Translations under genes and position numbers: made by a program
The notes under the pieces: generated by a model
What the model was told of the DNA's origin: nothing
The model's input: only the letters and a program-made list of their open reading frames with translations
Databases searched by the model: none
In this document: one piece after another, positions 8,647-55,455 of the stretch
Layout of the letters: every line of letters starts with the position of its first letter
Numbering within the stretch: the first letter of the stretch is position 1
IMG/VR virus record: IMGVR_UViG_3300009509_000016
From: a virus
Reading direction: 5' to 3' (one strand)
DNA length: 64,000 bases

Positions 8647-9962
8647 AATTCCAAAAATATCTAACAGAAAAATATTGGGGAAGGGTTGAATCTAGATGGA
8701 CAGGCATGAATCTAGAGATTTTTGAGAACCCATCTAAGAAGGAATTTTTAGATGCTGCTGCTATTGGTATAGTCGAGAAGTATGTTAGGTTTATTGCAGA
8801 CCCAAAAAGAAAAAAGGTTTATATATGGAGTGCCAATGCTATTCATGCTGATATGGTTCCAGAGATTTATAATAAATCATATGCCAATGTAATTTTTAAA
8901 GTGCTCCCTGGAACTGCTAAACAACAGGGGGGAAGATGGGTTATAATAGCCACTGATGAAGTTGAAGTTACTCCTGATAGATATAATTGGATCATGCAAC
9001 ATGATTGGTCATGGGCAGATAGATATATTGAAGTTACTCCATGGATAAAAAAACTTCGTATAGGTAAAGCATATGAAAGTAAGCTGGAAAAGTACTTGAC
9101 AGAAAAGTGGGTTCATAGTACAAATATAAAACCTTTTGGAAAGACATTATTTGTTGAAATTTTTCAGAATCCTTCAAAAGCTGAGTATAGAGATGCTGCC
9201 AAGGCAAGTAAAACTGGTATTATTCCTGCCCTGAGAGGAAGACTGGCAACAGGCTTTATTACACCTCAAGGGGATGTATGGCTATGGAGAGGGGATGTAT
9301 GGCACTATGATCTTCCTCAAGATGCACTTAATAAAATAGGAAAAGGTGCAAAAGGATTTCATTTCGGATTTAGTGAGAATGAAGTTTCCTTATATAGTGG
9401 TGAGTTTAAACAAATAACAAAAAAGCTTGCATTAAAATTAGTAGATAGATTGGCCAAGATAGAGCCTAAGCTAAAAACTGCACAAATATTAATAGATGAT
9501 ATGTATCTAGAAGATTTAGAAGGATCAGTAGAAGAAGGCAGAAATATTCCTGGTCACATGGGATCTGGACCGGATGTATGGGATATATTATTAGAGCCAC
9601 AAGATACAGCACCAGAAACAGATGTTAAAGGCAATTACATATTATATCATGGAACAGTTCTTAGCACTGCCAAAGAAATTATAAAGACAAAATTAGTGAA
9701 ACTATCTAAGGGATGGGGAACAGGTGTAACAACAACACCATGGGAAGCAAAAGGCTATGCAGGAATGAAGAGAATAGATGTTGGTGGTCTTAAGACAGGA
9801 GAAAAAGCAGCAGTCCTTCAAATGGTAATAGATAAAGACTGGTTTCATAAACAGGTTATCCAAAGAGAAATTGGTGGACACGGTAAAAACGAATTTTTAA
9901 TAAGAGGGGATATTACACCACAAGCTATTAAGAAGATAAAAATCTGGAGAACCTTTCCATGA
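8643..9962 (+). CDS. Fusion protein: two copies of the paralog domain plus C-terminal H-Y-E-type ADP-ribosyltransferase-like region
   Basis: MKFQKYLTEKYW...FENPSKKEF..; internal second copy ...LEKYLTEKW...FQNPSKAEYRD...VWLWRGDVWHYDL; C-terminal NYILYHGTVLSTAKEII (YHGT as in diphtheria toxin/PARP/Tpt1). Confidence 0.7.
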   Translation: MKFQKYLTEKYWGRVESRWTGMNLEIFENPSKKEFLDAAAIGIVEKYVRFIADPKRKKVYIWSANAIHADMVPEIYNKSYANVIFKVLPGTAKQQGGRWVIIATDEVEVTPDRYNWIMQHDWSWADRYIEVTPWIKKLRIGKAYESKLEKYLTEKWVHSTNIKPFGKTLFVEIFQNPSKAEYRDAAKASKTGIIPALRGRLATGFITPQGDVWLWRGDVWHYDLPQDALNKIGKGAKGFHFGFSENEVSLYSGEFKQITKKLALKLVDRLAKIEPKLKTAQILIDDMYLEDLEGSVEEGRNIPGHMGSGPDVWDILLEPQDTAPETDVKGNYILYHGTVLSTAKEIIKTKLVKLSKGWGTGVTTTPWEAKGYAGMKRIDVGGLKTGEKAAVLQMVIDKDWFHKQVIQREIGGHGKNEFLIRGDITPQAIKKIKIWRTFP

Positions 9963-10456
9963 GATTTGAGCAATATCTAATAGAAACAGCAGTCAAAAAG
10001 CCTATAGTTTATCATGGTTCATATACAGATAATATTAAAAAATTTTCTACCAAGAGAAGATTAACAGAAACAGGTATTAGACATTTTGGTTCTTATTTTA
10101 CGGATTCTAGAGATATGGCAGAGACTTTTGGTAAGTATCTTTATAAAGTTCAATTGCAGTTTACAAAAATTATTGATATGACTAAATGGCCCCCATTGAG
10201 TGCAGATGATAATTTTATTAAATCATTACCAGGATTGAAGCCACAGGAAATAGATAATTATTTAAGATTTGATTATCGTGGGAAAAATTCTCCATATAAT
10301 GTTGTTGAAACTTTAGATGGAAAATATGATATACTGAAACGATGGAAAAAAATGGGGTATGATGGGATTGCCTTCTGGGAAGAACATTTTAGCAAGAAGG
10401 GAATCACTTATGTACCTTTCTTCCAAAGACAAATAGAAATATTGGAAAAATTATGA
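9959..10456 (+). CDS. Putative PARP/DT-like ADP-ribosyltransferase with CTS-like N-terminus
   Basis: MRFEQYLIE...IVYHGSYTDNI...GIRHFGSYFTDSRDMAETFGKYLY resembles the PARP H-G-S ... GIYFAD...Y motifs. Confidence 0.55.
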   Translation: MRFEQYLIETAVKKPIVYHGSYTDNIKKFSTKRRLTETGIRHFGSYFTDSRDMAETFGKYLYKVQLQFTKIIDMTKWPPLSADDNFIKSLPGLKPQEIDNYLRFDYRGKNSPYNVVETLDGKYDILKRWKKMGYDGIAFWEEHFSKKGITYVPFFQRQIEILEKL

Positions 10457-11868
10457 GACTAACAACTTTCCTTATAAATGAAGCAGCAGAAGCATTGAGA
10501 GATTGGAATAAGTACGTTAAGAGGAATAGAATGCTTGCCAGTGCCGTTATAGTACTTAAGAAAATAGCATCTAAGGGCTATAAAGCTTTTATAGTTGGTG
10601 GAGCAGTACGTGATATTGTGCTTGGCAATCAGCCGAAAGATGTAGACATTGCAACCAACATGCCAATGGATGAACTGGCAAAAATATGGAAAGTTGCCGA
10701 TATTGGTAAGTCAAAAGACTTTGGAATTGTCATAATTAAAGAAGGTGGTACTGTATTTGAAGTTGCACAATTTAGACAAGATGGGAAGTATATTGATGGT
10801 AGAAGACCTGAATCAATTCAGATTGCAGGTTCCTTTAAAGAAGATGTATCAAGAAGAGACTTCACCATTAATGCAATGGGCATTGATGCTGATGGCAATA
10901 TCATAGACTATTTTGATGGAAGGAAGGATATTAAAGATAAAGTTCTGAGAACTGTTGGAGATCCTATGAAAAGGTTCTCAGAGGATAAGTTACGAATCAT
11001 GAGAGCAGCACGTTTCTCTGCTCAACATGGTCTTGATATAGAACCTGCTACACAAAAAGCTGCAAAGAAGTTATCTCAGGACATTACTAAACTTCCTATG
11101 GAAAGAATTAAAGATGAGATATTTAAAGCAGCAAAGCTAGAGGGCAGCAGGTTTGCAGTCTATTTGCAAATTTTAGATCAATTTAAAGTATTGAAGTTTA
11201 TCTTACCGGAGTTAGTAACTCTTAAGTGGATTAAACATGCACCAGCACATCATCCAGAAGCACCTACAGTTTGGGGTCATGTGATGGCAGCACTTAAAGC
11301 CAGCAACACAACAGATCCTATAAAGAATCTGGCAATTCTACTTCATGATGTTGGAAAGACAATTACTCAAGGAGTAAAGGCAGGAGTCCCTACTTACTAT
11401 GGTCATGCAGAAGCAGGTGTTAATTTAGTTAATAGTATAGCTGATAGATTGAGAATGTCTAATAAAGAGAGACAGGCACTTCTTTTTGCAGTAGGGAATC
11501 ATATGAAGTTTCATGATCTATTTAAAATGAAACCATCTAAGATTGCCAAATTGGTTAATGATGAAAATTGGGATGTCTTAGTAGCAGTTGGTCAAGCCGA
11601 TGCATGGGCAAGGGGTCCAGAGTTTAAACATTATAAGAAATGGGAAGAGATGATTGACCATGCTATACAAATCAAAAACAAGTGGGGTATTAATCAAGTT
11701 AGCAAGATTAATGCCATTGTTGATGGTAATCAGATTATGAGACTAACAGGACTCAGGCCAGGACCAAAAATCGGAGAGATTAAAAATAAGATCCTGGAAT
11801 GGGTAGTTGATAATAACATCACTGATCAACAAGAGATAGAAAATAAGATCAAAGAATTAGCTTCCTAG
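10453..11868 (+). CDS. cca: CCA-adding tRNA nucleotidyltransferase / poly(A) polymerase family with HD domain, carrying CTS-like N-terminal extension
   Basis: GGAVRDIVLGNQPKDVDIAT class II nucleotidyltransferase head motif; C-terminal HD region (LLHDVGK, GHAEAG); about 30-aa N-terminal extension MRLTTFLINEAAE. Confidence 0.85.
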   Translation: MRLTTFLINEAAEALRDWNKYVKRNRMLASAVIVLKKIASKGYKAFIVGGAVRDIVLGNQPKDVDIATNMPMDELAKIWKVADIGKSKDFGIVIIKEGGTVFEVAQFRQDGKYIDGRRPESIQIAGSFKEDVSRRDFTINAMGIDADGNIIDYFDGRKDIKDKVLRTVGDPMKRFSEDKLRIMRAARFSAQHGLDIEPATQKAAKKLSQDITKLPMERIKDEIFKAAKLEGSRFAVYLQILDQFKVLKFILPELVTLKWIKHAPAHHPEAPTVWGHVMAALKASNTTDPIKNLAILLHDVGKTITQGVKAGVPTYYGHAEAGVNLVNSIADRLRMSNKERQALLFAVGNHMKFHDLFKMKPSKIAKLVNDENWDVLVAVGQADAWARGPEFKHYKKWEEMIDHAIQIKNKWGINQVSKINAIVDGNQIMRLTGLRPGPKIGEIKNKILEWVVDNNITDQQEIENKIKELAS

Positions 11869-17989: not shown

Positions 17990-18880
17990 ATGAGAAGATT
18001 CAAAATGTTGATGTTGGTTTTAATGGTTATGGCAATGTTTATTGCCACTGGTTGTACTGAGAGGGTTCCACCTGGATTTATCGGAATGGTTATGACTCCA
18101 GGTGGTTTGACTGGTGAAGTTCTTGCACCAGGAAACCATACTTGTTACAACCGTGATAGAATGATCCTCATTGAGTATGTTGAAAAGGCATATACAGAGC
18201 CTTTAAGCATTCTTTGTGACGATGATCTTAACTTTAAATTTGATCTTAAGATTCGTGTTATGACACTTGCCGATGATAACAAGGCAGTTATGGAACTTTT
18301 GGGCAAGCAGGGTTCTCAGATCACATGGGATGGTGATATAGGTGTTTTGCCATTTGATATTCTGTATAAAACATATGTTGCTGATCCTGCAAGATCTATA
18401 GCAAGAGGGGTTGTATCAAAATATAAGACAACCGATATTCGTAATGCTAGAGATGAAATTACAAAAACAATTACAGAAAAACTTACTAAATCTGTCCAGG
18501 GTACACCTGTAAAAATTACCCTCATAGCTACCTCAAATTTCGATTATCCTGATGTTATCACTAAAGCTGTGGAAGATAAGAGAAGACGTGAAATTGAAAT
18601 CGAAACTGAGAAGGCAACTCAAGCTATGGAAATTCTTAAGCTGGATAATAGAAAGATTCTGGCCCAGAAGAGAAAGCAGGTTCGTGCTACTGAAGCAGAA
18701 GCAGAAGCAGTTTATGTAACTGTTATGGGTAAAGCATTAACCTCTGATTACCTCAAATTGAGAGAAATTGAGAGGGATATAACTCTCTATGAAAAAGTTT
18801 CTCCAGGGGATAAAGTCATAGTAACTGGCAATGGTAATGTTACCCCTTTGATTGATGTTACACCTGCTACAAAGAAATAA
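17990..18880 (+). CDS. SPFH/Band-7-like lipoprotein
   Basis: Lipoprotein signal MLMLVLMVMAMFIATGC; C-terminal EAEAEA coiled coil typical of SPFH proteins. Confidence 0.5.
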   Translation: MRRFKMLMLVLMVMAMFIATGCTERVPPGFIGMVMTPGGLTGEVLAPGNHTCYNRDRMILIEYVEKAYTEPLSILCDDDLNFKFDLKIRVMTLADDNKAVMELLGKQGSQITWDGDIGVLPFDILYKTYVADPARSIARGVVSKYKTTDIRNARDEITKTITEKLTKSVQGTPVKITLIATSNFDYPDVITKAVEDKRRREIEIETEKATQAMEILKLDNRKILAQKRKQVRATEAEAEAVYVTVMGKALTSDYLKLREIERDITLYEKVSPGDKVIVTGNGNVTPLIDVTPATKK

Positions 18881-28888: not shown

Positions 28889-30496
28889 TTATCCTCCAAA
28901 CATTACCTTTGAATCATCTAACCAACTCCAGTCTTCTACTTCTGTGTCTATATCGGTTAGAATGCCCCAAACATCATCTTTCTCTTCTTTATTTTCTTGT
29001 TGTTTTACAGATCCATCCTCATTCAATGTATATTCTTCTTCGAAAATGTTCATCTCAAGGACAAAGACTGCCCAATACAATGCAGAAATGAGATCATCAG
29101 GCATTTCCTTTCCAAAGAATTTTCCATTTTCTTCGACAAAGGAAGTTAATTGATCTAATGTTTCTTCATCAACTAGATCTAGACTACCATCTTCAATAAG
29201 TCTTTTCATTAAAAGAACTGCCATAGGTTTGGTAGATTTTGTAGCTCTAATACCAAGATCCTTTGTTTTAGATCCAGTATTAACTAGATTTTCGTTTTCA
29301 TATTCCCACCACAGTCTATTAACAACAACTGCACCTTCTGCATTATTTTCAACCATTGTATATGCATTATTGTAATAATACGATAGTCTATTGACAAGTT
29401 CAGAGAACTTATAGACATCTATCATGTTATTCCAATAAACTGCAACTTGTCTCATCTTAACAGGACTGAGAGTTACTAGTTCAAGAATTTGTACTGCTGA
29501 ATAGTGTTCTCCAGTTCCCTTTCCGGTATCAACACCAAGGATATATGAAGATCCTTCTTTTGGTTTTTCATAAATGTAAAGGTGACCATTAAGATCTTCT
29601 ATAAGAGGATCTTGGAACCTCTCCACTATGATCTCCAGAACATCAGGATCAATAACAGTGCTTGCAGATCCAAGAAATTCAACTTCATGTTCTTGATTGA
29701 ATCTCTGCTTACTGCCAAGGTTCTTAAGCTCTTGCTCTGCCCACTTCTCATCTCTGCCAGGAACTTGTCTCCAGTTGACCTTGGTGGTTTTAAATTCATT
29801 ATCCCCTCTTTCTGCTTTTACCCAGAGTTTATGGAAGAGGTTATGCATACCATTAGGAGTGGAGATAACAATTACTTTTGATTGTTTTGATGCTGATATA
29901 GTTGGATAGTTTGCTGCCCAGAAATCTTTTGCCATATTTTTAGGAACGAATGCAAACTCATCACAAATCAGGAGGTTCATGGTTTGGCCACGAAAAGCAT
30001 CTTCTGTTGTTGCCGATATCATGATTTGAGTTTCATTATCAAAAGTAACACCAGTTTTTTGATATTCTTTAACTCCAGGCTTTAACCAAGTAGGTAATCT
30101 CTCATACATCTTTTTTAGCCTGTTAAGAATCATCTTTGCACTGCTTTCTTTATTTGAAACAATACCAATTACTTTATCTGGATTAAAGATAGCATACCAT
30201 AATGCATAGACACCAACAGCAGTTGTTTTTCCAGACTGTCTAGCTAATAAACCTATATTGAATCTGTTTTTTTGGAATTTTTTCAGGAGGACTTTTTGAT
30301 AGTCATAAGGATCAAAGACAATCTCCCCACGGTCAGGATGGACAATCTTTACATAGGGAAGAAATTCATTGATATCTTTCATGCAGTTTTGTAGTGCAAG
30401 GATCTGCCAATCTTCGAACTCATGTTCTTCGAAAGGTCTCTTTACAAAACTGTCATATCTGATTGCCAAACAAAACCCTCCTACATAACTCTTCAT
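28889..30496 (-). CDS. gp17: Terminase large subunit (T4 gp17-like)
   Basis: Walker A LLARQSGKTT, VTFDNETQIM, LICDEFAFVP align with T4 gp17 LSRQLGKTT, IELDNGS, IEDCAFIP. Confidence 0.9.
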   Translation of the reverse strand: MKSYVGGFCLAIRYDSFVKRPFEEHEFEDWQILALQNCMKDINEFLPYVKIVHPDRGEIVFDPYDYQKVLLKKFQKNRFNIGLLARQSGKTTAVGVYALWYAIFNPDKVIGIVSNKESSAKMILNRLKKMYERLPTWLKPGVKEYQKTGVTFDNETQIMISATTEDAFRGQTMNLLICDEFAFVPKNMAKDFWAANYPTISASKQSKVIVISTPNGMHNLFHKLWVKAERGDNEFKTTKVNWRQVPGRDEKWAEQELKNLGSKQRFNQEHEVEFLGSASTVIDPDVLEIIVERFQDPLIEDLNGHLYIYEKPKEGSSYILGVDTGKGTGEHYSAVQILELVTLSPVKMRQVAVYWNNMIDVYKFSELVNRLSYYYNNAYTMVENNAEGAVVVNRLWWEYENENLVNTGSKTKDLGIRATKSTKPMAVLLMKRLIEDGSLDLVDEETLDQLTSFVEENGKFFGKEMPDDLISALYWAVFVLEMNIFEEEYTLNEDGSVKQQENKEEKDDVWGILTDIDTEVEDWSWLDDSKVMFGG

Positions 30497-30530
30497 CTAT
30501 ATTTATATGTAGGAGGGCAATATTTAAAAA

Positions 30531-32108
30531 TTATGGTCTTCTTTGGGGTGTTTTTGCTGCTTGTGTTGGGTTCCCTTTCTTCTGCATTTTTTCAAGAATT
30601 TGTAATTGGACTTCATCTCCCTTTAAGAAGACAACTAAAAGTTTTGCTTCATTTCTTAGAATAGTATCTAAATAAACATCACGTTCAGTTAGATTATATA
30701 TGTGCTTCATTGTTTCTGTTGTATATTTCATATCCAGATCTAAGCCAGTGTGTCTATGAACAAATAGAGTGCCATTTCTGAAATTGCCATCAACTACTTC
30801 TATCTTAGGGACTCTGCTATGAGCAAAGCTATTTATAATTGCTTCTCTTATTTCTTTGGGATCATGATCTGTTCTTACAAGATCAACAGTTGTCATTGTT
30901 TCCATCAATCCCCATAGATAGAGGTTAAGTTTGTCAATCATTTCTACAGTGAAGAAGTCTTGGAAAAAGAACCAGTCCATATATGATTGCATTACTTCTA
31001 GGCACTTATCCCATCCCTTCATTTCTTTGGTATCCCAATTTTCTTTCTCTTTGATGCTTTTACAATCTTCCCATTCATATCCATATCTTCCTTTGTTCCA
31101 TCTTTCTTCTATATCATAGAACATAGTTGAGCCAACAAGATAAGGATTAAGTTGAGTGGGGTTTTCTGCTTTGATTCTTGCATTACTATCATTGAATGAA
31201 GCATGATCTGCTGTTGAGAGGATGCCTTTGTCGAAAAGCATTTTCATTATCTTCTCATGAATAATAGTTGCCCATCCCTCATTCATGAACTGAGTTCTTA
31301 TTATTGGCCAGAGAAATCTTCCCTCTTCTCTCAATACTTCTAAAATATCTTTCTGCCAATTTTCTAGTATCCTGGAGTTATCAATAATCCATCTAAGAAT
31401 GTCTTCAGTTGGTTCAACAGGATTTTTTAATCTTAATTGTCGTTTAAGTCTTTCATTGTAAATTTCTATATCAGCTATTTCTAGCTTCTTTGGTTTGTCT
31501 GGAGAATCCAGAGGAAAGTCCCTGAACTCTGACTTTCTTTCAAAAGACCTTTGCATTCTTTTTTGATGATATATTCTTTCTCTCTTTTCATCTTCAGTTT
31601 CATTATCAAATGGACTACTATGATACTGTATTGAGTGACCAGCATCTACAATTTTTTCCACTTCCCTAACACCAAAACGTCTTTCATAATCCAGGAATCT
31701 TCTCTTGGCTTCACTCATGACATCTAAAAAATCCACTCTCATTTCCTTAAACCATTTGTTCATGGTGAAGAAAGTGACATGACCAAAGACATGTGCCATG
31801 ACTGTACAATGAACAGGGAAGGTGTTAGAGTTCATTAGATATGCTCTTGCAGGATTTCCATGGACAACAACTTCATATGGAAGACCTCTACCTATTTTTT
31901 CATGGATGGTTCTTAATCTCTCATAGTCCCTTCCATACTTCCAGTTGGAAATTTGTTGAGGACTTCTATATGCCATGATCTCAAGCATCTTCATATCAGG
32001 CACAACATCAAATTCAATTGGCAGGTATGTCAGTTTAAGTTCGTCAGTGACAAACTTTTCTATAACTTTCTCTACCTTTACTAATTTCTGTAGCTCTTGT
32101 TTTTTCAT
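30531..32108 (-). CDS. spoVR: SpoVR/YcgB family protein
   Basis: 525 aa; ATGA-coupled directly downstream of PrkA and DUF444 genes in the conserved bacterial order; size matches YcgB/SpoVR. Confidence 0.75.
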   Translation of the reverse strand: MKKQELQKLVKVEKVIEKFVTDELKLTYLPIEFDVVPDMKMLEIMAYRSPQQISNWKYGRDYERLRTIHEKIGRGLPYEVVVHGNPARAYLMNSNTFPVHCTVMAHVFGHVTFFTMNKWFKEMRVDFLDVMSEAKRRFLDYERRFGVREVEKIVDAGHSIQYHSSPFDNETEDEKRERIYHQKRMQRSFERKSEFRDFPLDSPDKPKKLEIADIEIYNERLKRQLRLKNPVEPTEDILRWIIDNSRILENWQKDILEVLREEGRFLWPIIRTQFMNEGWATIIHEKIMKMLFDKGILSTADHASFNDSNARIKAENPTQLNPYLVGSTMFYDIEERWNKGRYGYEWEDCKSIKEKENWDTKEMKGWDKCLEVMQSYMDWFFFQDFFTVEMIDKLNLYLWGLMETMTTVDLVRTDHDPKEIREAIINSFAHSRVPKIEVVDGNFRNGTLFVHRHTGLDLDMKYTTETMKHIYNLTERDVYLDTILRNEAKLLVVFLKGDEVQLQILEKMQKKGNPTQAAKTPQRRP

Positions 32109-33457
32109 GTACTAGCCCTTTCAAATAACATGTGCTTGAGTGCAGGATAAACATGGTTCTTGTTTTTGATTATACATGCAAGAACTCTTTTATTTGGATC
32201 TTTATAGAAGACTGTTCCTTCTTCTTTTGTTTCAGAAAAATTGAATTTCTTCTTAAAATAACTCATCAAACCACCTTGATAACCAATTGCTGATGCAAGC
32301 TGTACAGCACCGAAAGGACCATAATCTTCTAGATTTTCATCCAAATTGATTTCAGTATATGCCAACATATTGATATTTTTTCTTAGCATTATATCAACTT
32401 CTTCCATGGTTCTATCAGGATCAAAGTCTTCACCATCACTGATATAAACAGAATAGATGTTCCATTCATCAACAGGAAATTCTGTTTCTATTAGATAGTT
32501 AACTTTTTCAAAAGCAGTATAACAAAAAGTTCCACCACTTTCACCCTTATAGAAGAAGTGATCTTCATCAACACGTTCAGCATGTGTGGTATGAATGATG
32601 AAGACAATTTCAACAAACTCATATTTCTTCTTTAGAAATTCTGTTAACCAGAAGAGCATAGATCTGGCTAGATACTTTTTATTTTGTGTCATTGATCCAG
32701 AGGAATCCATCATTGCAAAGACTACAGCATTGCTATGAATCTCTACATCTTCTTCTATCTGCTTATACCTTAGATCATCGTCTTCAAAATAAACACCACC
32801 AGTTGGTGGAATATCAACCAGAGTGTTAGTTTTGATTAGATGAATTGCTATTTCAAGATCACCTTCAGCTTGCTCTAGACCAGCATATGCTGTTTCTTCA
32901 GTACATCCGGTTTCTTCTATAATATCTTTAACAAAGATATTTGTTCTTGCTATAGCTTCTTTTAGGGTTCTAAGCTTATGGATTCTTGAGAAAGCACCTT
33001 TCTTTGTAATTGATTCGAATTTCCATCCTTTAGGAATCAATTGTTGTGCTTTTGTCTTTTCTTCAATCCATGGTAGACCAAGATCCTCAAACATTATCTG
33101 AAGAAGATAATCAATATCAACTTCAGTTTCCATGAAATCTATTCCTGGTCTGTTTCCAGCTTTTTTCCCATCTTGCTTTTGCTGCTTACGTTTTTGATCA
33201 ATGACATCTCCAGGTTTTGCTGGACCTTGACCAGCACCACCACCACCTTTACCGATACCATAGATAAATCTATAATCACGTAAACCTTTAACAGGAATAC
33301 GAACTATTTTTTCCCCTCTTTTAGTGATAATAGAGGAATCAGCAATAGCATCTCTTACATTCTCTCTAATTGCCTTATCTATCTTTTGTCTATGTCTTTC
33401 GGCATCCTTTCTACCCTTTTCGGATAGACTCCAATCATCATGGACAATTATTGCCAT
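32105..33457 (-). CDS. yeaH: YeaH/YhbH family (DUF444) vWA-domain protein
   Basis: 450 aa; MIDAS-like FAMMDSSGSM vWA motif; Gly-rich KGGGGAGQGPAKPGD segment; partner of PrkA. Confidence 0.8.
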   Translation of the reverse strand: MAIIVHDDWSLSEKGRKDAERHRQKIDKAIRENVRDAIADSSIITKRGEKIVRIPVKGLRDYRFIYGIGKGGGGAGQGPAKPGDVIDQKRKQQKQDGKKAGNRPGIDFMETEVDIDYLLQIMFEDLGLPWIEEKTKAQQLIPKGWKFESITKKGAFSRIHKLRTLKEAIARTNIFVKDIIEETGCTEETAYAGLEQAEGDLEIAIHLIKTNTLVDIPPTGGVYFEDDDLRYKQIEEDVEIHSNAVVFAMMDSSGSMTQNKKYLARSMLFWLTEFLKKKYEFVEIVFIIHTTHAERVDEDHFFYKGESGGTFCYTAFEKVNYLIETEFPVDEWNIYSVYISDGEDFDPDRTMEEVDIMLRKNINMLAYTEINLDENLEDYGPFGAVQLASAIGYQGGLMSYFKKKFNFSETKEEGTVFYKDPNKRVLACIIKNKNHVYPALKHMLFERAST

Positions 33458-33498
33458 TTATACCATCCTTTTTGTTTTAATTGGTAAGAAATTACCTG

Positions 33499-35460
33499 TT
33501 AGCCTTCTCTTCTTAGGATTTCACCTACGAATGCAAGCAGGTTATTTGCACAATGATCACAATAACCATTTTCTAGTAACCTATCAATAGCTTCAACTCT
33601 TCTTCTCTTTGTTTTCTTGTCAGTCTTAGAAGGATCTGCCAGAGTTAGGCTTACAACATTCTTGAGGTCAGACATTAACTTCTTCTCAATAGCTTCTTTT
33701 AGAGAAGGATAAGATTTGAAGGTAAACTTCTCTCCCCTATCTTGAGCAGAAGATTTGTGTACAAAGATGCCATTTCGGAACTCAGCTTTGGAATTGACCG
33801 GAATGTTAATTAGCTCTTCAATAGACCTCATTAACTTTTCATCAGGATCAGTATATTCACCTGTGATACTGTCATGCACCTTTTGCTTTAAACAGAAGGC
33901 TTCAACATTTCTCATGTAGTTATCGAATAATGTATTTGCTTGCTCTTCATAAGCATGGAGGAATGCAACATTGACTTCCCTTTTTGCAATCTCTTTGTAC
34001 TCAGAACTTACACTGTCTTTCTCACCAATTAACATTCCTTCGAAACGTGATTGATCTTCATCTGAAATTCCCACATGATGTGAGAAGTGATCTCTTAGTG
34101 CTCTTATTGCATCAATAGGATTGATACAATTTCTTTCTTCTCTTGCACCAAGGGCAACATTGAGAGCATTGATAACAAAACGTGGAGAGATACCAGACAT
34201 ACCTTCTCCCTGTGATCTACCCTCTTCTCTAAGAGCCTTAACATCAAACTCTTCTTTTTTGAAATCATCTACAATTTCATCATTGTAGATTTTCATCTTC
34301 TTTACGAGATTGTCTACCTTGGCAGATTGAACGAGTCTTGAAAGAACTGCCCACTGTGCTGCTACCTTTAATGTATTGGGAGCAATATGCACATTGGCAA
34401 AATCTGACTCTGCAATCATCTTTTGATAAATCTTAATTTCATCATCTACCCTTACATTGTAGGGAACCTTTACAACATACATTCTATCGTGGAGTGCTTC
34501 ATTCTCCTGCTTCCCTCTGAATTTATCAAATTCAGTTTGGTTAGTATGTGAAAGGAGTAGAGTATCTATATATATCTGAGGAAATCTAGGTGCCTTGATT
34601 ACCTGCTCTTGAGCAACAGTAATAAGGACAAAGTGAAATTTGATATCAGCTTTTAAGATTTCGATATATTCAACCAAACCACGGTTAGCTACTTGCAATT
34701 CACCATCAAATTGATATGCTTTTGGATGTGATTCACCATGTCTTGCAAGTTTTGCCATGTTAACAGAACCAATTAGTTCTGATATATCTTGTGATTTTGG
34801 GTCAGATGGTTGAAAAGTACCGATACCAGTTCTTCTTTGTTCGGAAAATACCATAGTTTCAACTTGCATGTCTTCCCATTTTATTGAACCATCTTCATCA
34901 GTATAGTCATTATCAAGACGATATTGACATACAGGGCAAAGATTACCTTCAATCTTTACACCAAGTTCTTCTTGCCACATTGGTCTATCCCATGCAGGAA
35001 TAAGATGTAAAGGATCTTCATGCATAGGGCAACCTTTTATTTTATATGCAGGGATATCGAATAATTCAAGTCCTCTTTTCATCCAGTAAGCAATAGTGCT
35101 TTTACCAGATGCAACAGGACCAACAAGCATTAAAATTCTTTTACCTGTTTCAGTTCTCTTTGCAGAAGCATTGAGGAACCTCATCATATCATGAATGGGT
35201 TCATAAGAACCATATATTTTGTCATTGAAGAAATTGTATTTAACGATGTCTTCATAACCTCTAGTACGATGTTCTTCAGGTAGGTCTTCAGTACCATAAG
35301 ACATCATCATGCTATAGATACGTCCAGGGGCAAACAGAGCAATCCTTGGATCTTTCTTCACCATCTCCAAGTATTGTAAACAAGTTCCTTCCCATTGTTC
35401 TCTTTTATATTTCGGTCTCTGTTTTTCGATTATTTCTCTTAGCCTATCCATATCAGCCAT
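33499..35460 (-). CDS. prkA: PrkA/YeaG-family serine protein kinase (AAA+ N-domain)
   Basis: Walker A LMLVGPVASGKST; DRMYVVKVPYNVRVDDEIKIYQKMI aligns with E. coli YeaG DRVYIVKVPYCLRISEEIKIYEKLL; 653 aa. Confidence 0.9.
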   Translation of the reverse strand: MADMDRLREIIEKQRPKYKREQWEGTCLQYLEMVKKDPRIALFAPGRIYSMMMSYGTEDLPEEHRTRGYEDIVKYNFFNDKIYGSYEPIHDMMRFLNASAKRTETGKRILMLVGPVASGKSTIAYWMKRGLELFDIPAYKIKGCPMHEDPLHLIPAWDRPMWQEELGVKIEGNLCPVCQYRLDNDYTDEDGSIKWEDMQVETMVFSEQRRTGIGTFQPSDPKSQDISELIGSVNMAKLARHGESHPKAYQFDGELQVANRGLVEYIEILKADIKFHFVLITVAQEQVIKAPRFPQIYIDTLLLSHTNQTEFDKFRGKQENEALHDRMYVVKVPYNVRVDDEIKIYQKMIAESDFANVHIAPNTLKVAAQWAVLSRLVQSAKVDNLVKKMKIYNDEIVDDFKKEEFDVKALREEGRSQGEGMSGISPRFVINALNVALGAREERNCINPIDAIRALRDHFSHHVGISDEDQSRFEGMLIGEKDSVSSEYKEIAKREVNVAFLHAYEEQANTLFDNYMRNVEAFCLKQKVHDSITGEYTDPDEKLMRSIEELINIPVNSKAEFRNGIFVHKSSAQDRGEKFTFKSYPSLKEAIEKKLMSDLKNVVSLTLADPSKTDKKTKRRRVEAIDRLLENGYCDHCANNLLAFVGEILRREG

Positions 35461-35944
35461 TATCTTCTCCTTGTTCTAGTTGTTTCACATCAGGGGCAGA
35501 ACCCCCACCTTTGCCTTCTCTGAGTATCTTTAGAATACTCTCTCTATCAGTCACAAGTATTTGTTGTGTGCCTGATCTACCACTACCGATTTGCTTGATT
35601 TGAATTTCCTTTTCCTTTAACCTTAACACACTATTTCTGATTTGTAAATATGCCTTGTTATATTCGTCAGAAATAATAGAGTTAGCAGCATTAGTTACAG
35701 CATTGATAAGCTGTGCCATAACCTCTGCTTTCCTTGCACTTACTTTTCTTGTTTCCTTGGCATCATCTTCTAAGATATCTAGAATACGGTTTGCTCTGGA
35801 AATGTTATCAGAAAGGACTTGATCAGGGTTTGACTCACTCTTAAACTTATTTATAGAAAGACTGCCTGTAATCTCAGCAATCTCTGCTTCTAATATTTCC
35901 ATCTCTAGTTCTTCAGCTAGTTTTTCTTCATTAATTTTCGGCAT
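35453..35944 (-). CDS. Hypothetical protein (163 aa)
   Basis: AAGGAGA RBS; first gene of transcription unit continuing into prkA. Confidence 0.55.
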   Translation of the reverse strand: MPKINEEKLAEELEMEILEAEIAEITGSLSINKFKSESNPDQVLSDNISRANRILDILEDDAKETRKVSARKAEVMAQLINAVTNAANSIISDEYNKAYLQIRNSVLRLKEKEIQIKQIGSGRSGTQQILVTDRESILKILREGKGGGSAPDVKQLEQGEDNG

Positions 35945-36019
35945 AAAAATTCTCCTTGGTCATTTCTTATTATTTATTATAATACATGGCAGTATCTATG
36001 TAAACCTAGGAGAGAAAAT

Positions 36020-36051
36020 AAAAAACCCCTGTGAGCCTAGACCCACAGGGG
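36020..36051 (-). terminator. Rho-independent terminator after major capsid gene
   Basis: Stem cccctgtg(36026-36033)/ccacagggg(36043-36051); on minus strand followed by TTTTTTATTTT. Confidence 0.75.
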
Positions 36052-36077
36052 TAAACTTACGTGATGTCAGTTAGACA

Positions 36078-37295
36078 TTACGGAAGGTTGACTACCTTAA
36101 TGTACTGATAGTAGTTCTGTGAACCGAATAGCAAGTCAGTGGTACAACCACCGTAAATTGCATATCTGCTCATCAAACCTACTGTTGGTTGGAATGAGTC
36201 TTCAAAGGTTGCTCTCATTGCAAGTAATTGGATATAAGGTAGATAGATAACACCAGCATCGTACTCAGACGGACCCTTGTAACCTACGATAACTTCGTCT
36301 TGGGTTGCAAAAGTATCACGGTAAACAGTGATTCTACCGTCAAGAGAACCAAGTCTAGCTACTCCGGTTGGAGCAGTGCTTGCATCACCAGGAACAGGAG
36401 CAATGGTGAAGGAAGGCATGGTTTCAAAAGCAACTGCTACGTTTGGTGAAACGATTATAAAGTTACCGGAACCACGTCTAGTGTTAATTGCAATTTGGTT
36501 AGTCTTTCTGATAACCAAATTCCAGAGGTTTCTGTATTTCTCAGCTTCCCACCTACCGTCAACTGTTACTGTATCATTGTAATCAAATTTTGCTGAAGTT
36601 GCAACGGATGCAGTTGCAGCACATCTGATTTCATAGATCAATTCACGGTCAATTTCCTGGGTGATTTCGTAAGCCAAGATATCCATCATTTCCTCTTCGA
36701 TATCGAGACCATGCATAGCCTTGAGGTCTTGTGCAACTTCAAGGGACCATCTTGATCTCAACTTACGAGTTTTTGCTTCTACCTGTTTCTTTTCAACTGT
36801 CATGTTGACTTCTTTGATTGCAACACCACTACCGATACCTAGACCTTGCCCTTGATCCCAAGGGGTTGTCATATTGGAGCCTAGAGCTTCACCAGCAGTT
36901 GTTACAACTGAACCAGTGTAAGATCTATCAATAGTGTTGTACCCTAGTTCCACACCAGGAGGTGAAGGTGTACCTGCATAGGTTTGACCTGCTCTGAATC
37001 TCAAAGCAAATGCCAATCCAACAGGACCAGTCAATGGCTGAACACCCACGATTTCATGAGCTACTAACTCAGGAAATGTACGTCTTACCATAGGTACTGC
37101 AATTTTATAGAAGTCACCAGAAGTAGCATAAGGACCACTTCTTGCAAGGGAACCTTCAGTATAACTTGATTCCATCAAGTAGTTATGTTCGTTCTCAAGC
37201 ATAACAGCAGTAGACTTCATAACTTTAGGGTTAGTAATCTTCTTGCCCTCATTGAGAACTTCTTCCCACTTTTTAACTAATTCTTTTACGTTCAT
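36078..37295 (-). CDS. gp23: Major capsid protein (T4 gp23-like)
   Basis: KIAVPMVRRTFPELVAHEIVGVQPLTGPVGLAFALR, EVAQDLKAMHG, GNFIIVSPNV, VGYKGPSEYDAGVIYLPYI align with T4 gp23. Confidence 0.9.
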   Translation of the reverse strand: MNVKELVKKWEEVLNEGKKITNPKVMKSTAVMLENEHNYLMESSYTEGSLARSGPYATSGDFYKIAVPMVRRTFPELVAHEIVGVQPLTGPVGLAFALRFRAGQTYAGTPSPPGVELGYNTIDRSYTGSVVTTAGEALGSNMTTPWDQGQGLGIGSGVAIKEVNMTVEKKQVEAKTRKLRSRWSLEVAQDLKAMHGLDIEEEMMDILAYEITQEIDRELIYEIRCAATASVATSAKFDYNDTVTVDGRWEAEKYRNLWNLVIRKTNQIAINTRRGSGNFIIVSPNVAVAFETMPSFTIAPVPGDASTAPTGVARLGSLDGRITVYRDTFATQDEVIVGYKGPSEYDAGVIYLPYIQLLAMRATFEDSFQPTVGLMSRYAIYGGCTTDLLFGSQNYYQYIKVVNLP

Positions 37296-38286: not shown

Positions 38287-39039
38287 TTATGCTGGTTCTG
38301 TATCATAGCTTCCACACTTAGGGCATTTAACTTCAAATGTTTTGGCACCTATCTTTTTCTGGAACCTCTTTCCACATTCCATGCATTGCATTGGTGTTTT
38401 TTGTTCATTTAATTGATCAAGCCATTTACCGAAATATTCTTGTCTTCGTAGCATATCTTCTTGGATCTTATCTATTTCTTCCTCTTCCATATCTTCAGTT
38501 TTTCTATCAGGACAGAAACAATGATCAGGATATTGCCATGTCTGTGCTTCATATATACCGTTAACCCATGATGGATTATTTGAAGGATCTGTTACTAAAT
38601 CCCATGTGATTAGTTTATAATCTTCATTAACATATCCATCTTCAGCAACAGTTCCTAGACCCCTGCTGGAAATACCAAGGTTACCGTTCCTAACAAGAGT
38701 TTTTGCAATATTGCCTAAAGGTGTATCAAGGATTTTAGAACGTCCATAGAGATCATTGCCTTTCCATTCTAGAGATTCGGTTAGAATAGCTATCCTTTCT
38801 GGATTTATCTCAGGGGAAGGTGGGTGACCTAATTCTCCCCAACAAGATCCTCTTGAAACCTTCTCCATTATTTTATCAACTTCTCTTTCCAGTAAATCCT
38901 TTTTGTATTTTCTGCTGTTATTATTTTCAATCTCTGCACTACTGAAAATACCAACAACAAACATGTCTTTAGATCTATTGCCTTCTTGCACAGCAATATC
39001 ATGACTCATTTCTGTAATAAGCTTGAATTGTTTGTTCAT
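38287..39039 (-). CDS. gp21: Prohead core protease (T4 gp21-like) with C-terminal zinc ribbon
   Basis: CWGELGHPPSPEINPERIAILTESLEWKGNDLYGRSKILD...GISSRGLGTV aligns with T4 gp21 ALGELNHPPRANVDPMQAAIIIEDMWWKGNDVYGRARVIE...GVSSRGLGSL. Confidence 0.85.
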   Translation of the reverse strand: MNKQFKLITEMSHDIAVQEGNRSKDMFVVGIFSSAEIENNNSRKYKKDLLEREVDKIMEKVSRGSCWGELGHPPSPEINPERIAILTESLEWKGNDLYGRSKILDTPLGNIAKTLVRNGNLGISSRGLGTVAEDGYVNEDYKLITWDLVTDPSNNPSWVNGIYEAQTWQYPDHCFCPDRKTEDMEEEEIDKIQEDMLRRQEYFGKWLDQLNEQKTPMQCMECGKRFQKKIGAKTFEVKCPKCGSYDTEPA

Positions 39040-54927: not shown

Positions 54928-55174
54928 TCCTGTTTTTCAATTTGAAATCCGGTGGTGTTCCTTTTGGTTCTCCAGATGGTAAATCTTTAAGTATCTGTTT
55001 CATTCTGTGAATATTCTCTGAGTCACCATTAGGCATGACACAACTATCAGGATCATCCTCTATTTCTACATTCATTTCCAATGGCAGAGGACACGAATTT
55101 TCTTCATCACATATAGGAATAACAAACTCTTCTTCTTCAAAAAATACAATCCTGAGCATTTCAATTATACTCAT
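54917..55174 (-). CDS. Small acidic protein (85 aa)
   Basis: First gene of minus-strand block. Confidence 0.45.
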   Translation of the reverse strand: MSIIEMLRIVFFEEEEFVIPICDEENSCPLPLEMNVEIEDDPDSCVMPNGDSENIHRMKQILKDLPSGEPKGTPPDFKLKNRSEF

Positions 55175-55312
55175 TTAATACCTCCCATCACTCTTTGAAC
55201 AAAGTTATCCCATAGATCAGTTCATTAATATTTATAAAATTGCTTCTGTTAAATATAAATATCATATAGGAAATATAATAAATACTAGTGAATAAATAAC
55301 TGAAAAATGTAT

Positions 55313-55422
55313 AGGTGGTCTTCCTCACCTTTAACAAATAAGAACCATGAGTCGTTTCCTTTGTGTGTGGAAACATTGACACCATTTATAAATATACAAG
55401 AGAGGGTTAGAGAAGACCACCT
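55313..55422. promoter_or_regulatory. Divergent intergenic control region bounded by an 11-bp inverted repeat
   Basis: aggtggtcttc (55313-55323) and gaagaccacct (55412-55422) flank about 88 bp containing TTGACA (55372-55377). Confidence 0.3.
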
Positions 55423-55455
55423 TCATTTAATTTCAGAAATATAGGAGGAACTGGA

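Follow-up and report, generated by a model that had tools for sequence, protein, structure and literature searches.

What does a complete bacterial prkA-yeaH-spoVR operon do inside the terminase operon of a T4-like phage, and how did it come to be there? The question is raised by the IMG/VR virus record IMGVR_UViG_3300009509_000016, a stretch of 64,000 nucleotides (nt) that we analyzed at its full length (hereafter, the window) and whose minus strand encodes, one after another, members of the PrkA/YeaG, DUF444 (YeaH/YhbH), and SpoVR/YcgB protein families. A first-pass annotation, made from the sequence without database searches, described these three genes (hereafter, the triad) as a contiguous, translationally coupled module that lies between the gp23-type major capsid gene and the gp17-type terminase gene and is probably transcribed together with the late structural genes. 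We found that the module characterizes a widespread lineage of uncultured T4-like phages, in which it is passed down vertically, and we read it as belonging to a transcription unit of its own. The interval 30531–35944 consists of four genes, listed here in the order in which they would be transcribed:

35453–35944, minus strand: orf163, a probable T4 gp16-like small terminase (TerS) of 163 amino acids, with an 8-nt overlap between its stop and the start of prkA
33499–35460, minus strand: PrkA/YeaG-family AAA+ protein of 653 amino acids (Pfam AAA_PrkA and PrkA C-terminal domain)
32105–33457, minus strand: DUF444 (YeaH/YhbH) von Willebrand factor A (vWA) protein of 450 amino acids (Pfam DUF444)
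30531–32108, minus strand: SpoVR/YcgB-family protein of 525 amino acids (Pfam SpoVR)

The identity and architecture of the triad are essentially certain. The PrkA protein matches the Pfam AAA_PrkA model over positions 2–358 of 358 (E = 3.6e-112, 375.4 bits; cut-off 25) and the PrkA C-terminal domain over positions 1–255 of 255 (E = 1.2e-73, 248.4 bits; cut-off 25), and it matches the PDB entry 9xip, a 'Serine protein kinase' (1.4e-126). The second and third proteins match Pfam DUF444 (1.8e-86, 291 bits; cut-off 27) and SpoVR (2e-86, 290.8 bits; cut-off 27), and the PDB sequence search returned no match for either of them. Hidden Markov model (HMM) searches thus recover PrkA, PrkA_C, DUF444, and SpoVR, with E-values in the range of 1e-73 to 1e-112, in open reading frames (ORFs) of exactly the sizes that the first-pass annotation had given. 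The one domain just under its cut-off is SpoVR_C (25.1 against 27.6 bits), which Pfam finds in 41 of 41 SpoVR members of the lineage at a best E-value of 8.5e-15. NCBIfam assigns the same three family names. Its scores for PrkA against PRK15455, the E. coli YeaG equivalog (313 bits; cut-off 576), and for DUF444 against TIGR02877 (1.4e-94, 317 bits; equivalog cut-off 468) do not reach those thresholds, which places the proteins within their families without making them equivalogs of their E. coli or Bacillus counterparts. PADLOC models, a library without anti-defense proteins, matched none of the four proteins encoded in the interval.

Motifs on which function would depend are in place. In PrkA, the Walker A motif GPVASGKS and the block DRMYVVKVPY...EIKIYQKMI align with phage and proteobacterial-type PrkA proteins, and the ATPase residues G114, P115, K120, S121, E264, E267, N307, R326, and R375, which include the Walker A, Walker B acidic, sensor-1 Asn, and Arg positions, are invariant in the alignment. 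The protein also bears two Cys/His clusters, CPxHEDPL...CPxC and GYCxHC (C144, H147, C175, C178; C634, C637), that may be zinc sites; they are common to this lineage, the Thermus phages discussed below, and the sampled non-proteobacterial homologues, and the PrkA of the phage RsoM2USA, which is of the proteobacterial YeaG type, lacks them. The metal ion-dependent adhesion site (MIDAS) of the DUF444 protein (DxSxS...T...D) is complete, with D251, S253, S255, T310, and D341. Both this motif and the Walker A had been pointed out at first pass, and both are present, aligned, and retained.

SpoVR has a predicted fold that is zincin-like, with H106-x3-H110 and E142. The motif reads H106-V-F-G-H110, not HEXXH, with the Val conserved throughout the family and E142 placed on the next long helix; the protein lacks the canonical catalytic Glu. 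Because HVFGH stands in place of HEXXH, SpoVR is not to be filed as a canonical zincin. The zincin link comes from one predicted model, for which a Foldseek search of the PDB gave no significant match, and no peptidase family came up when 41 SpoVR homologues were scanned against Pfam with a limit of E ≤ 5. At five loci assigned to Chloroflexota or Acidobacteriota (L049, L050, L058, L060, and L089), an insert of 0.9–1.2 kb splits SpoVR at approximately residues 281–297, near the invariant NEGWA motif.

All three proteins keep most of the residues that bacteria conserve. Counting as conserved those residues that are at least 95% conserved among 19–22 bacterial homologues, the window proteins keep 152 of 164 in PrkA and 49 of 63 in SpoVR; DUF444 keeps 74 of 92, with every MIDAS residue among them. 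Across the triad proteins, 78–93% of bacterially invariant residues are retained. A few such residues differ across the entire phage clade, among them PFHF336–339 of DUF444 and H55 and D112 of SpoVR.

The three genes are adjacent on one strand in the order PrkA-DUF444-SpoVR, which matches that of bacterial loci having all three and confirms the prkA-yeaH-spoVR order, on the minus strand, of the first-pass annotation. The accompanying claim of three contiguous coupled genes stands in part. duf444 and spoVR do overlap by 4 nt, whereas a 41-nt spacer separates prkA from duf444, and the interval holds the fourth gene, which overlaps prkA by 8 nt.

That fourth gene, orf163, gave no match in library scans as a single sequence, and a homologue gave no match at E ≤ 1 in a tblastn search of isolated phages; its structure model (predicted local distance difference test score, 64) returned only non-specific helical matches in Foldseek (E > 2). 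The family as a whole is more informative. Seven of 10 members match phrog_445, 'terminase small subunit' (best E = 2e-5), and three match phrog_735. In hhalign comparisons, the family profile aligned with T4 gp16 (E = 0.013 and 0.0074) and with the TerS of C48C1 (E = 0.0084), with the same S-x-R-x-x-EV motif; a C-terminal motif is also aligned in the C48C1 comparison and in the first of those with gp16. When the family HMM was run against 2,036 ORFs from phages and bacterial loci, T4 gp16 and C48C1 TerS were the top two (E = 0.018 and 0.032), with the next at 0.87. We conclude from these several agreeing signals, whose individual E-values are weak, that orf163 is a probable gp16-like small terminase. 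An earlier impression of a T4-like capsid-targeting sequence at its N terminus was no more than that and is superseded by this assignment.

With orf163 as TerS, the triad sits between terS and the gene of the large terminase, terL. The position between gp23 and gp17 noted at first pass is therefore correct, and what had been missed is that terS lies inside that interval, on the capsid side of the triad. In T4-like phages, terS and terL are normally adjacent and overlapping; here orf163 is coupled to prkA, not to terL, which lies 5 kb downstream, beyond the triad. orf163 is conserved 5' of prkA in most related loci that cover the position.

Is this arrangement a peculiarity of one assembly? Seventeen IMG/VR loci carry a close relative of the window PrkA, and those that reach far enough encode the prohead protease, the scaffold, the major capsid protein (MCP), TerS, PrkA, DUF444, SpoVR, TerL, and a neck protein; at least 24 contigs encode a PrkA identical to that of the window. 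The genes that flank the triad in the window are T4-like throughout (scaffold, S77 prohead protease, T4-type portal, gp13-type neck protein, TerL, and gp23-type capsid), and a PolB-type DNA polymerase and helicases are encoded elsewhere in it. Phage contigs of 219 kb and 195 kb carry more distant members, whose PrkA is 63–65% identical and whose triad again occupies the gp23-gp17 slot, sometimes with extra genes. A different layout occurs on a 270-kb ENA contig (L116, 10001–15322), where a triad with a 66% identical PrkA is surrounded by accessory genes and has neither MCP nor TerL nor TerS within 10 kb of it; its neighbors encode an Asn synthase, a DNA methylase, PhageMetallopep and Peptidase_M24 proteins, a PAS-domain protein, Rad52, a ClpB-like AAA+ protein, and a radical SAM protein. 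This layout indicates that the terS-terL slot is typical and not obligatory. Bacterial flanking DNA and chimeric assembly are ruled out as explanations, as the synteny repeats on dozens of independent contigs.

Within the lineage, the triad behaves as a part of the genome that is passed on with its core. Trees of MCP, TerL, PrkA, DUF444, and SpoVR give the same subclades, and the triad proteins diverge in step with MCP and TerL (r = 0.86–0.94 between pairwise distances). All three genes are kept across a lineage in which MCP has diverged to 61% identity. The triad is under strong purifying selection, at the level of constraint seen in TerL: measured against a 97%-identical relative, the ratio of nonsynonymous to synonymous substitution rates (dN/dS) is 0.063 for PrkA, 0.077 for DUF444, and 0.051 for SpoVR, compared with 0.051 for TerL and 0.14 for terS. 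What defines a phage auxiliary module is thus found here, with phage core genes on both sides on many contigs, purifying selection, and a position nested among cellular homologues. Among the phage-lineage homologues, intein or LAGLIDADG domains occur in three PrkA proteins (P0057, P0082, and P0088), in three SpoVR proteins (P0281, P0289, and P0355), and in a portal protein (L117:1–1109).

The nearest cellular operons come from metagenome-assembled genomes of Desulfobacterota and Spirochaetota, with PrkA 57–60%, DUF444 38–42%, and SpoVR 36–41% identical to the phage proteins. These are tight prkA-duf444-spoVR operons on contigs of up to 5.3 Mb, and no matches to the window's own head and packaging genes lie within 6 kb of them. 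A phylogeny against host homologs had been suggested at first pass as a route to the source, and in neighbor-joining trees (100 bootstraps, modest samples) the T4-like phage sequences are monophyletic for each protein, with bootstrap values of 99 (PrkA), 89 (DUF444), and 96 (SpoVR), and sister to the Desulfobacterota/Spirochaetota operons in all three. The triad has a GC content of 35%–37%, and of 23%–30% at third codon positions (GC3), which is the phage's own composition; the nearest bacterial loci have 51%–66% GC. A single phage clade, sister bacterial operons, and phage-like GC together point to one old capture of the whole prkA-yeaH-spoVR operon, followed by vertical descent.

The signals around the interval bear on when these genes might be expressed. 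Reading in the direction of transcription, the relevant features are as follows:

36078–37295, minus strand: major capsid protein, gp23-type (Pfam Gp23, E = 1.3e-99)
36025–36052, minus strand: terminator-like hairpin that follows the capsid gene immediately and marks the upstream edge of the unit (12 bp, 7 of them G-C, with a T-run)
35971–36004, minus strand: promoter-like region 5' of orf163 (TTTACA-17-TATAAT and an overlapping AATAAATA)
30465–30518, minus strand: conserved hairpin between spoVR and terL (13-bp stem, TATAAATA in the loop, then UUUUGUUU)
28889–30469, minus strand: large terminase, T4 gp17-like (Pfam Terminase_6N, E = 7.6e-23; listed by the ORF finder as 28889–30496)

The hairpin that follows the capsid gene (36052–36025) has a predicted folding free energy (dG) of −26.6 kcal/mol (z = −5.1; 0 of 200 shuffles as stable). 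It is the best terminator-like site within 28–40.5 kb, and the same hairpin is found in two relatives (L004 and L006). Just past it, TTTACA-17-TATAAT agrees with the sigma-70 consensus at 11 of 12 positions and is the best sigma-70-like match of the region. It is overlapped by AATAAATA, which contains the T4 late-type core ATAAATA and stands 27 nt ahead of the orf163 start codon; by-eye reading of upstream sequences found this core 5' of the orf163 homologue in nine of 11 related loci. In the structural block as a whole, the sense strand has 11 ATAAATA occurrences, of which five are intergenic against 0.5 expected (p = 7e-5), and these intergenic copies lie 17–61 nt ahead of orf104, the scaffold gene, the capsid gene, terS, and terL. 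No gp55-like late sigma factor was found among 20 further window ORFs, so the late-promoter assignment rests on the position of the motif only. The divergent intergenic region between the structural and rightward blocks (54928–55455) contains three exact copies of TATAAATA, at 55229–55236 on the minus strand and at 55254–55261 and 55387–55394 on the plus strand.

At the far end of the triad, the hairpin between spoVR and terL is similarly stable (dG −25.4, z = −4.2; 0 of 200 shuffles as stable), and UUUUGUUU forms its U-run. Its 5' arm contains CCCTCC, the complement of a Shine-Dalgarno sequence, its 3' arm the Shine-Dalgarno-like GGAGGG, and its loop an exact TATAAATA at 30500–30507. The same design of hairpin, ATAAATA, Shine-Dalgarno, and U-run precedes terL in L004, L005, L006, L007, L008, and L021, with differing sequences, so that a (T)ATAAATA element lies inside or beside the terL hairpin in the window and in six relatives. 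The GGAGGG of the 3' arm is positioned as a Shine-Dalgarno for a TTG start at 30469. This TTG (M-AIRYD...), and not the ATG at 30496, is probably the true start of terL, because homologues have an ATG at the same M-x-IRYD position directly past the hairpin; alignments to other TerL proteins begin at residues 15–18 of the listed ORF.

Given the putative terminator after the capsid gene, the promoter-like match, and the hairpin before terL, terS and the triad look like a transcription unit of their own. We read this unit as consisting of the promoter or promoters, terS-prkA-yeaH-spoVR, and the hairpin or terminator; terL would then be translated for the most part from a late-type start of its own. 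The first-pass claim that no terminator intervenes is wrong, and the probable co-transcription with the late structural genes that was concluded from it does not follow.

The triad is rare in phages, as had been anticipated: PrkA is found in 17 of 50,697 phage records, and in none of the other T4-like phage records of that collection. Phage-borne copies have been annotated in Thermus phages, beginning with phiYS40, and in RsoM2USA. Like the window, the Thermus phages phiYS40, TMA, phiLo, Lalka8/27, and MN1 encode PrkA, DUF444, and SpoVR (annotated as serine kinase, vWA protein, and SpoVR). They differ in host (Thermus), in gene order, which is DUF444-SpoVR-(X)-PrkA, and in sequence, with PrkA 33–38% and the other two proteins 23–34% identical to those of the window. 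Their copies branch as a clade of their own, a sign of independent capture, and no matches to the window MCP, TerL, or portal were found near their triads, which marks these phages as unrelated. In Lalka8 the triad lies between portal/minor-head genes and TerL, and in phiYS40 it lies ~1.2 kb from TerL.

The Ralstonia jumbo phage RsoM2USA (ORF30–ORF28) and the huge phages LR756502 and LR756511 have the module in bacterial order, as in the window, and in none of them is it in the terminase operon. The PrkA proteins of RsoM2USA and LR756502 are of the proteobacterial YeaG type, without the CPxH...CPxC insert, and 27–30% identical to that of the window; the RsoM2USA SpoVR is reported to be 56% identical to a Vibrio protein, and LR756502 has no SpoVR adjoining its PrkA-DUF444 pair. 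The LR756511 PrkA (33% identical) branches apart from both the YeaG type and the T4-like clade. Complete triads have therefore entered unrelated phages on at least three separate occasions. Enterobacter phage LAU1 (L111, 1–3308) was rejected as a true carrier: its YeaG and YeaH genes are found at one extremity of a prophage-like record of 30 kb and probably represent flanking host DNA.

What, then, might the triad do for the phage? In bacteria, yeaG, yeaH, and ycgB show cofitness of r > 0.7 in six species, with nitrogen- and carbon-source phenotypes (10.1101/072470), and Bacillus PrkA is required for sporulation and stress tolerance. ATP-dependent casein hydrolysis has been reported for B. subtilis PrkA (PMC9512850), and pure B. 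anthracis PrkA showed neither kinase nor protease activity and was placed among clade III AAA+ proteins with a pore loop, like YME1 (PMC13001217). By analogy with this work, we lean slightly toward a reading in which the phage uses the triad as bacteria do, imposing or bypassing the starvation-adaptation program of slow-growing hosts. An ancestral phage captured a prkA-yeaH-spoVR operon once, and the operon landed between terS and terL. The three products would act as a single ATP-driven machine that remodels or processes proteins, with PrkA as AAA+ motor, YeaH as vWA/MIDAS adaptor, and SpoVR as a zincin-like, metal-dependent partner. This machine would stand in for, or overrule, the corresponding module that the host itself uses in starvation and stationary phase, and slow-growing, nutrient-limited hosts would thereby be kept productive for the phage. 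The terL hairpin may mask the ribosome-binding site of terL on read-through transcripts, with a late-type promoter within or beside it. Such masking would suggest that the terS-triad unit is transcribed at a time when TerL must stay off, which would fit a role that starts before late morphogenesis.

Several considerations weigh against host adaptation. A host-reprogramming module would be expected among the early genes and not in a terminase operon; the promoter and terminator calls are pattern based, the promoters being consensus matches only; and the biochemistry of the bacterial triad is disputed, with kinase, protease, and scaffold roles all proposed. The present host is, in addition, probably not among the bacteria that carry the nearest operons, because those genomes are high in GC. 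In the leading alternative, the AAA+/vWA/zincin-like machine serves morphogenesis or packaging, with phage substrates such as the prohead, scaffold, portal, or terminase. In its favor, the triad of most lineage members occupies the terS-terL slot with terS coupled to prkA, and ATAAATA late-type cores stand ahead of the unit as they do ahead of head genes. Lalka8, an independent captor, likewise holds its triad between head genes and TerL, and that of phiYS40 is not far from TerL, whereas the triads of MN1, phiLo, RsoM2USA, and the huge phages do not adjoin annotated head genes, and that of L116 is away from head and terminase genes altogether. Against this role, PrkA is missing from all other T4-like phage records in the collection. 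The clade-wide replacements of bacterially invariant residues are compatible with new partners, but most functional residues are as in bacteria, and in non-sporulating bacteria the triad serves metabolic adaptation. We regard a role in morphogenesis or packaging as unlikely; it would echo the part that PrkA, YhbH, and SpoVR play in the building of spore cortex and coat. A more specific version is in our view rather doubtful: the triad not as a metabolic add-on but as a dedicated, ATP-driven protein-processing machine (PrkA as unfoldase, YeaH as adaptor, SpoVR as non-canonical zincin) built into the terminase operon, acting on the prohead or packaging apparatus or dismantling host complexes at a set time. 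Were it true, it would reveal the function of YeaG/YeaH/YcgB and PrkA/YhbH/SpoVR to be the assembly or remodeling of large protein shells such as spore integuments and capsids.

The machine might instead be turned on some other host system, degrading or sequestering defense or stress proteins or, late in infection, scavenging amino acids by ATP-dependent proteolysis. An AAA+ motor, a vWA adaptor, and a zincin-like fold would suit targeted protein processing, and diverse large phages have acquired the triad convergently. Against such targets stand the missing catalytic Glu of SpoVR, the questioned protease activity of PrkA alone, and the negative PADLOC result, obtained with a library that does not include anti-defense proteins; we consider them improbable. 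That the operon is neutral cargo, carried passively in a variable region without benefit, is hard to reconcile with dN/dS values of 0.05–0.08 that equal that of TerL, with the retention of all three genes as they co-diverge with MCP, with a GC content fully adjusted to the phage, and with at least three captures of the whole triad by unrelated phages. The gp23-gp17 interval is indeed variable in relatives (with an adenylosuccinate synthetase in L021 and inserts of several kb in L012–L016), and homing endonucleases and inteins are common nearby, yet we judge passive carriage very improbable.

The capsid protein of the window shows no more than 37% identity to that of its best isolated-phage match, and the phage collection holds no close DNA match to the window. 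The capsid gene (36078–37295) has a GC content of 0.42 (GC3 0.33), compared with 0.36 in the rest of the window. The S77 prohead protease (38287–39039, minus strand) has a C-terminal zinc-ribbon extension with two CxxC pairs (residues ~209–247); we know of no such extension in T4 gp21. On the plus strand, 523–2181 encodes a 552-amino-acid 'RNA-binding protein' of phrog_850, 9959–11868 an ART-PolyVal ADP-ribosyltransferase adjoining a CCA-adding-type tRNA nucleotidyltransferase, 17990–18880 an SPFH/Band 7 domain protein, and 62270–62734 a protein with a TnsA-like endonuclease domain. The window contains no tRNA genes.

Phage-borne triads were already known from a few other phages, and the module of the window is real and unusual. 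As far as the literature can be searched, the lineage-wide insertion between terS and terL, the regulatory signals of the unit, the origin near Desulfobacterota/Spirochaetota operons, and the predicted zincin-like fold of SpoVR are new. Many bacterial phyla conserve the triad, and the cofitness among its three genes is strong. At least three captures of it by unrelated phages, constraint at the level of TerL, and the predicted SpoVR fold argue for one portable functional unit with a generic, valuable activity. Phages offer small, tractable systems in which to study it, and the Thermus phages are culturable. There is also a caution for viromics. In ocean viromes, spoVR has been entered among the 'sporulation' auxiliary metabolic genes of viruses (PMC8940887), and this is how viral spoVR hits have been read; here spoVR is part of a triad whose homologues also work in non-sporulating bacteria.

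How does the phage module compare with systems that are better known? Its closest counterparts, the bacterial operons of Desulfobacterota and Spirochaetota (L029–L037), share with it the families, gene order, Walker motifs, Cys/His clusters, MIDAS, and SpoVR H/E/D residues; the phage copy differs in being flanked by terS and terL, in lying behind a phage promoter, and in its GC content (35% against 51%–66%). The leader of terL recalls a device by which T4 confines translation to late transcripts, in which genes e, soc, 49, and I-TevI have a late promoter inside a hairpin that sequesters the ribosome-binding site. Before terL, a CCUCC-type stretch is predicted to pair with the Shine-Dalgarno, and transcripts starting at ATAAATA would escape the pairing. 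The terL hairpin departs from that device in the U-run that follows it, which makes it a possible terminator, and in the window no gp55-like factor was found to accompany it. Pairs of AAA+ and vWA proteins are familiar from the MoxR-type RavA-ViaA, from CbbQ-CbbO, and from the CobS-CobT of T4-like cyanophages. PrkA, in contrast, is not of the MoxR clade and carries a large kinase-like C-terminal domain. In its possible mode of action, an AAA+ motor joined to a zincin-like fold, the triad resembles the AAA+/zincin proteases FtsH and YME1, from which it differs in having its zincin-like protein as a separate polypeptide with HVFGH for HEXXH.

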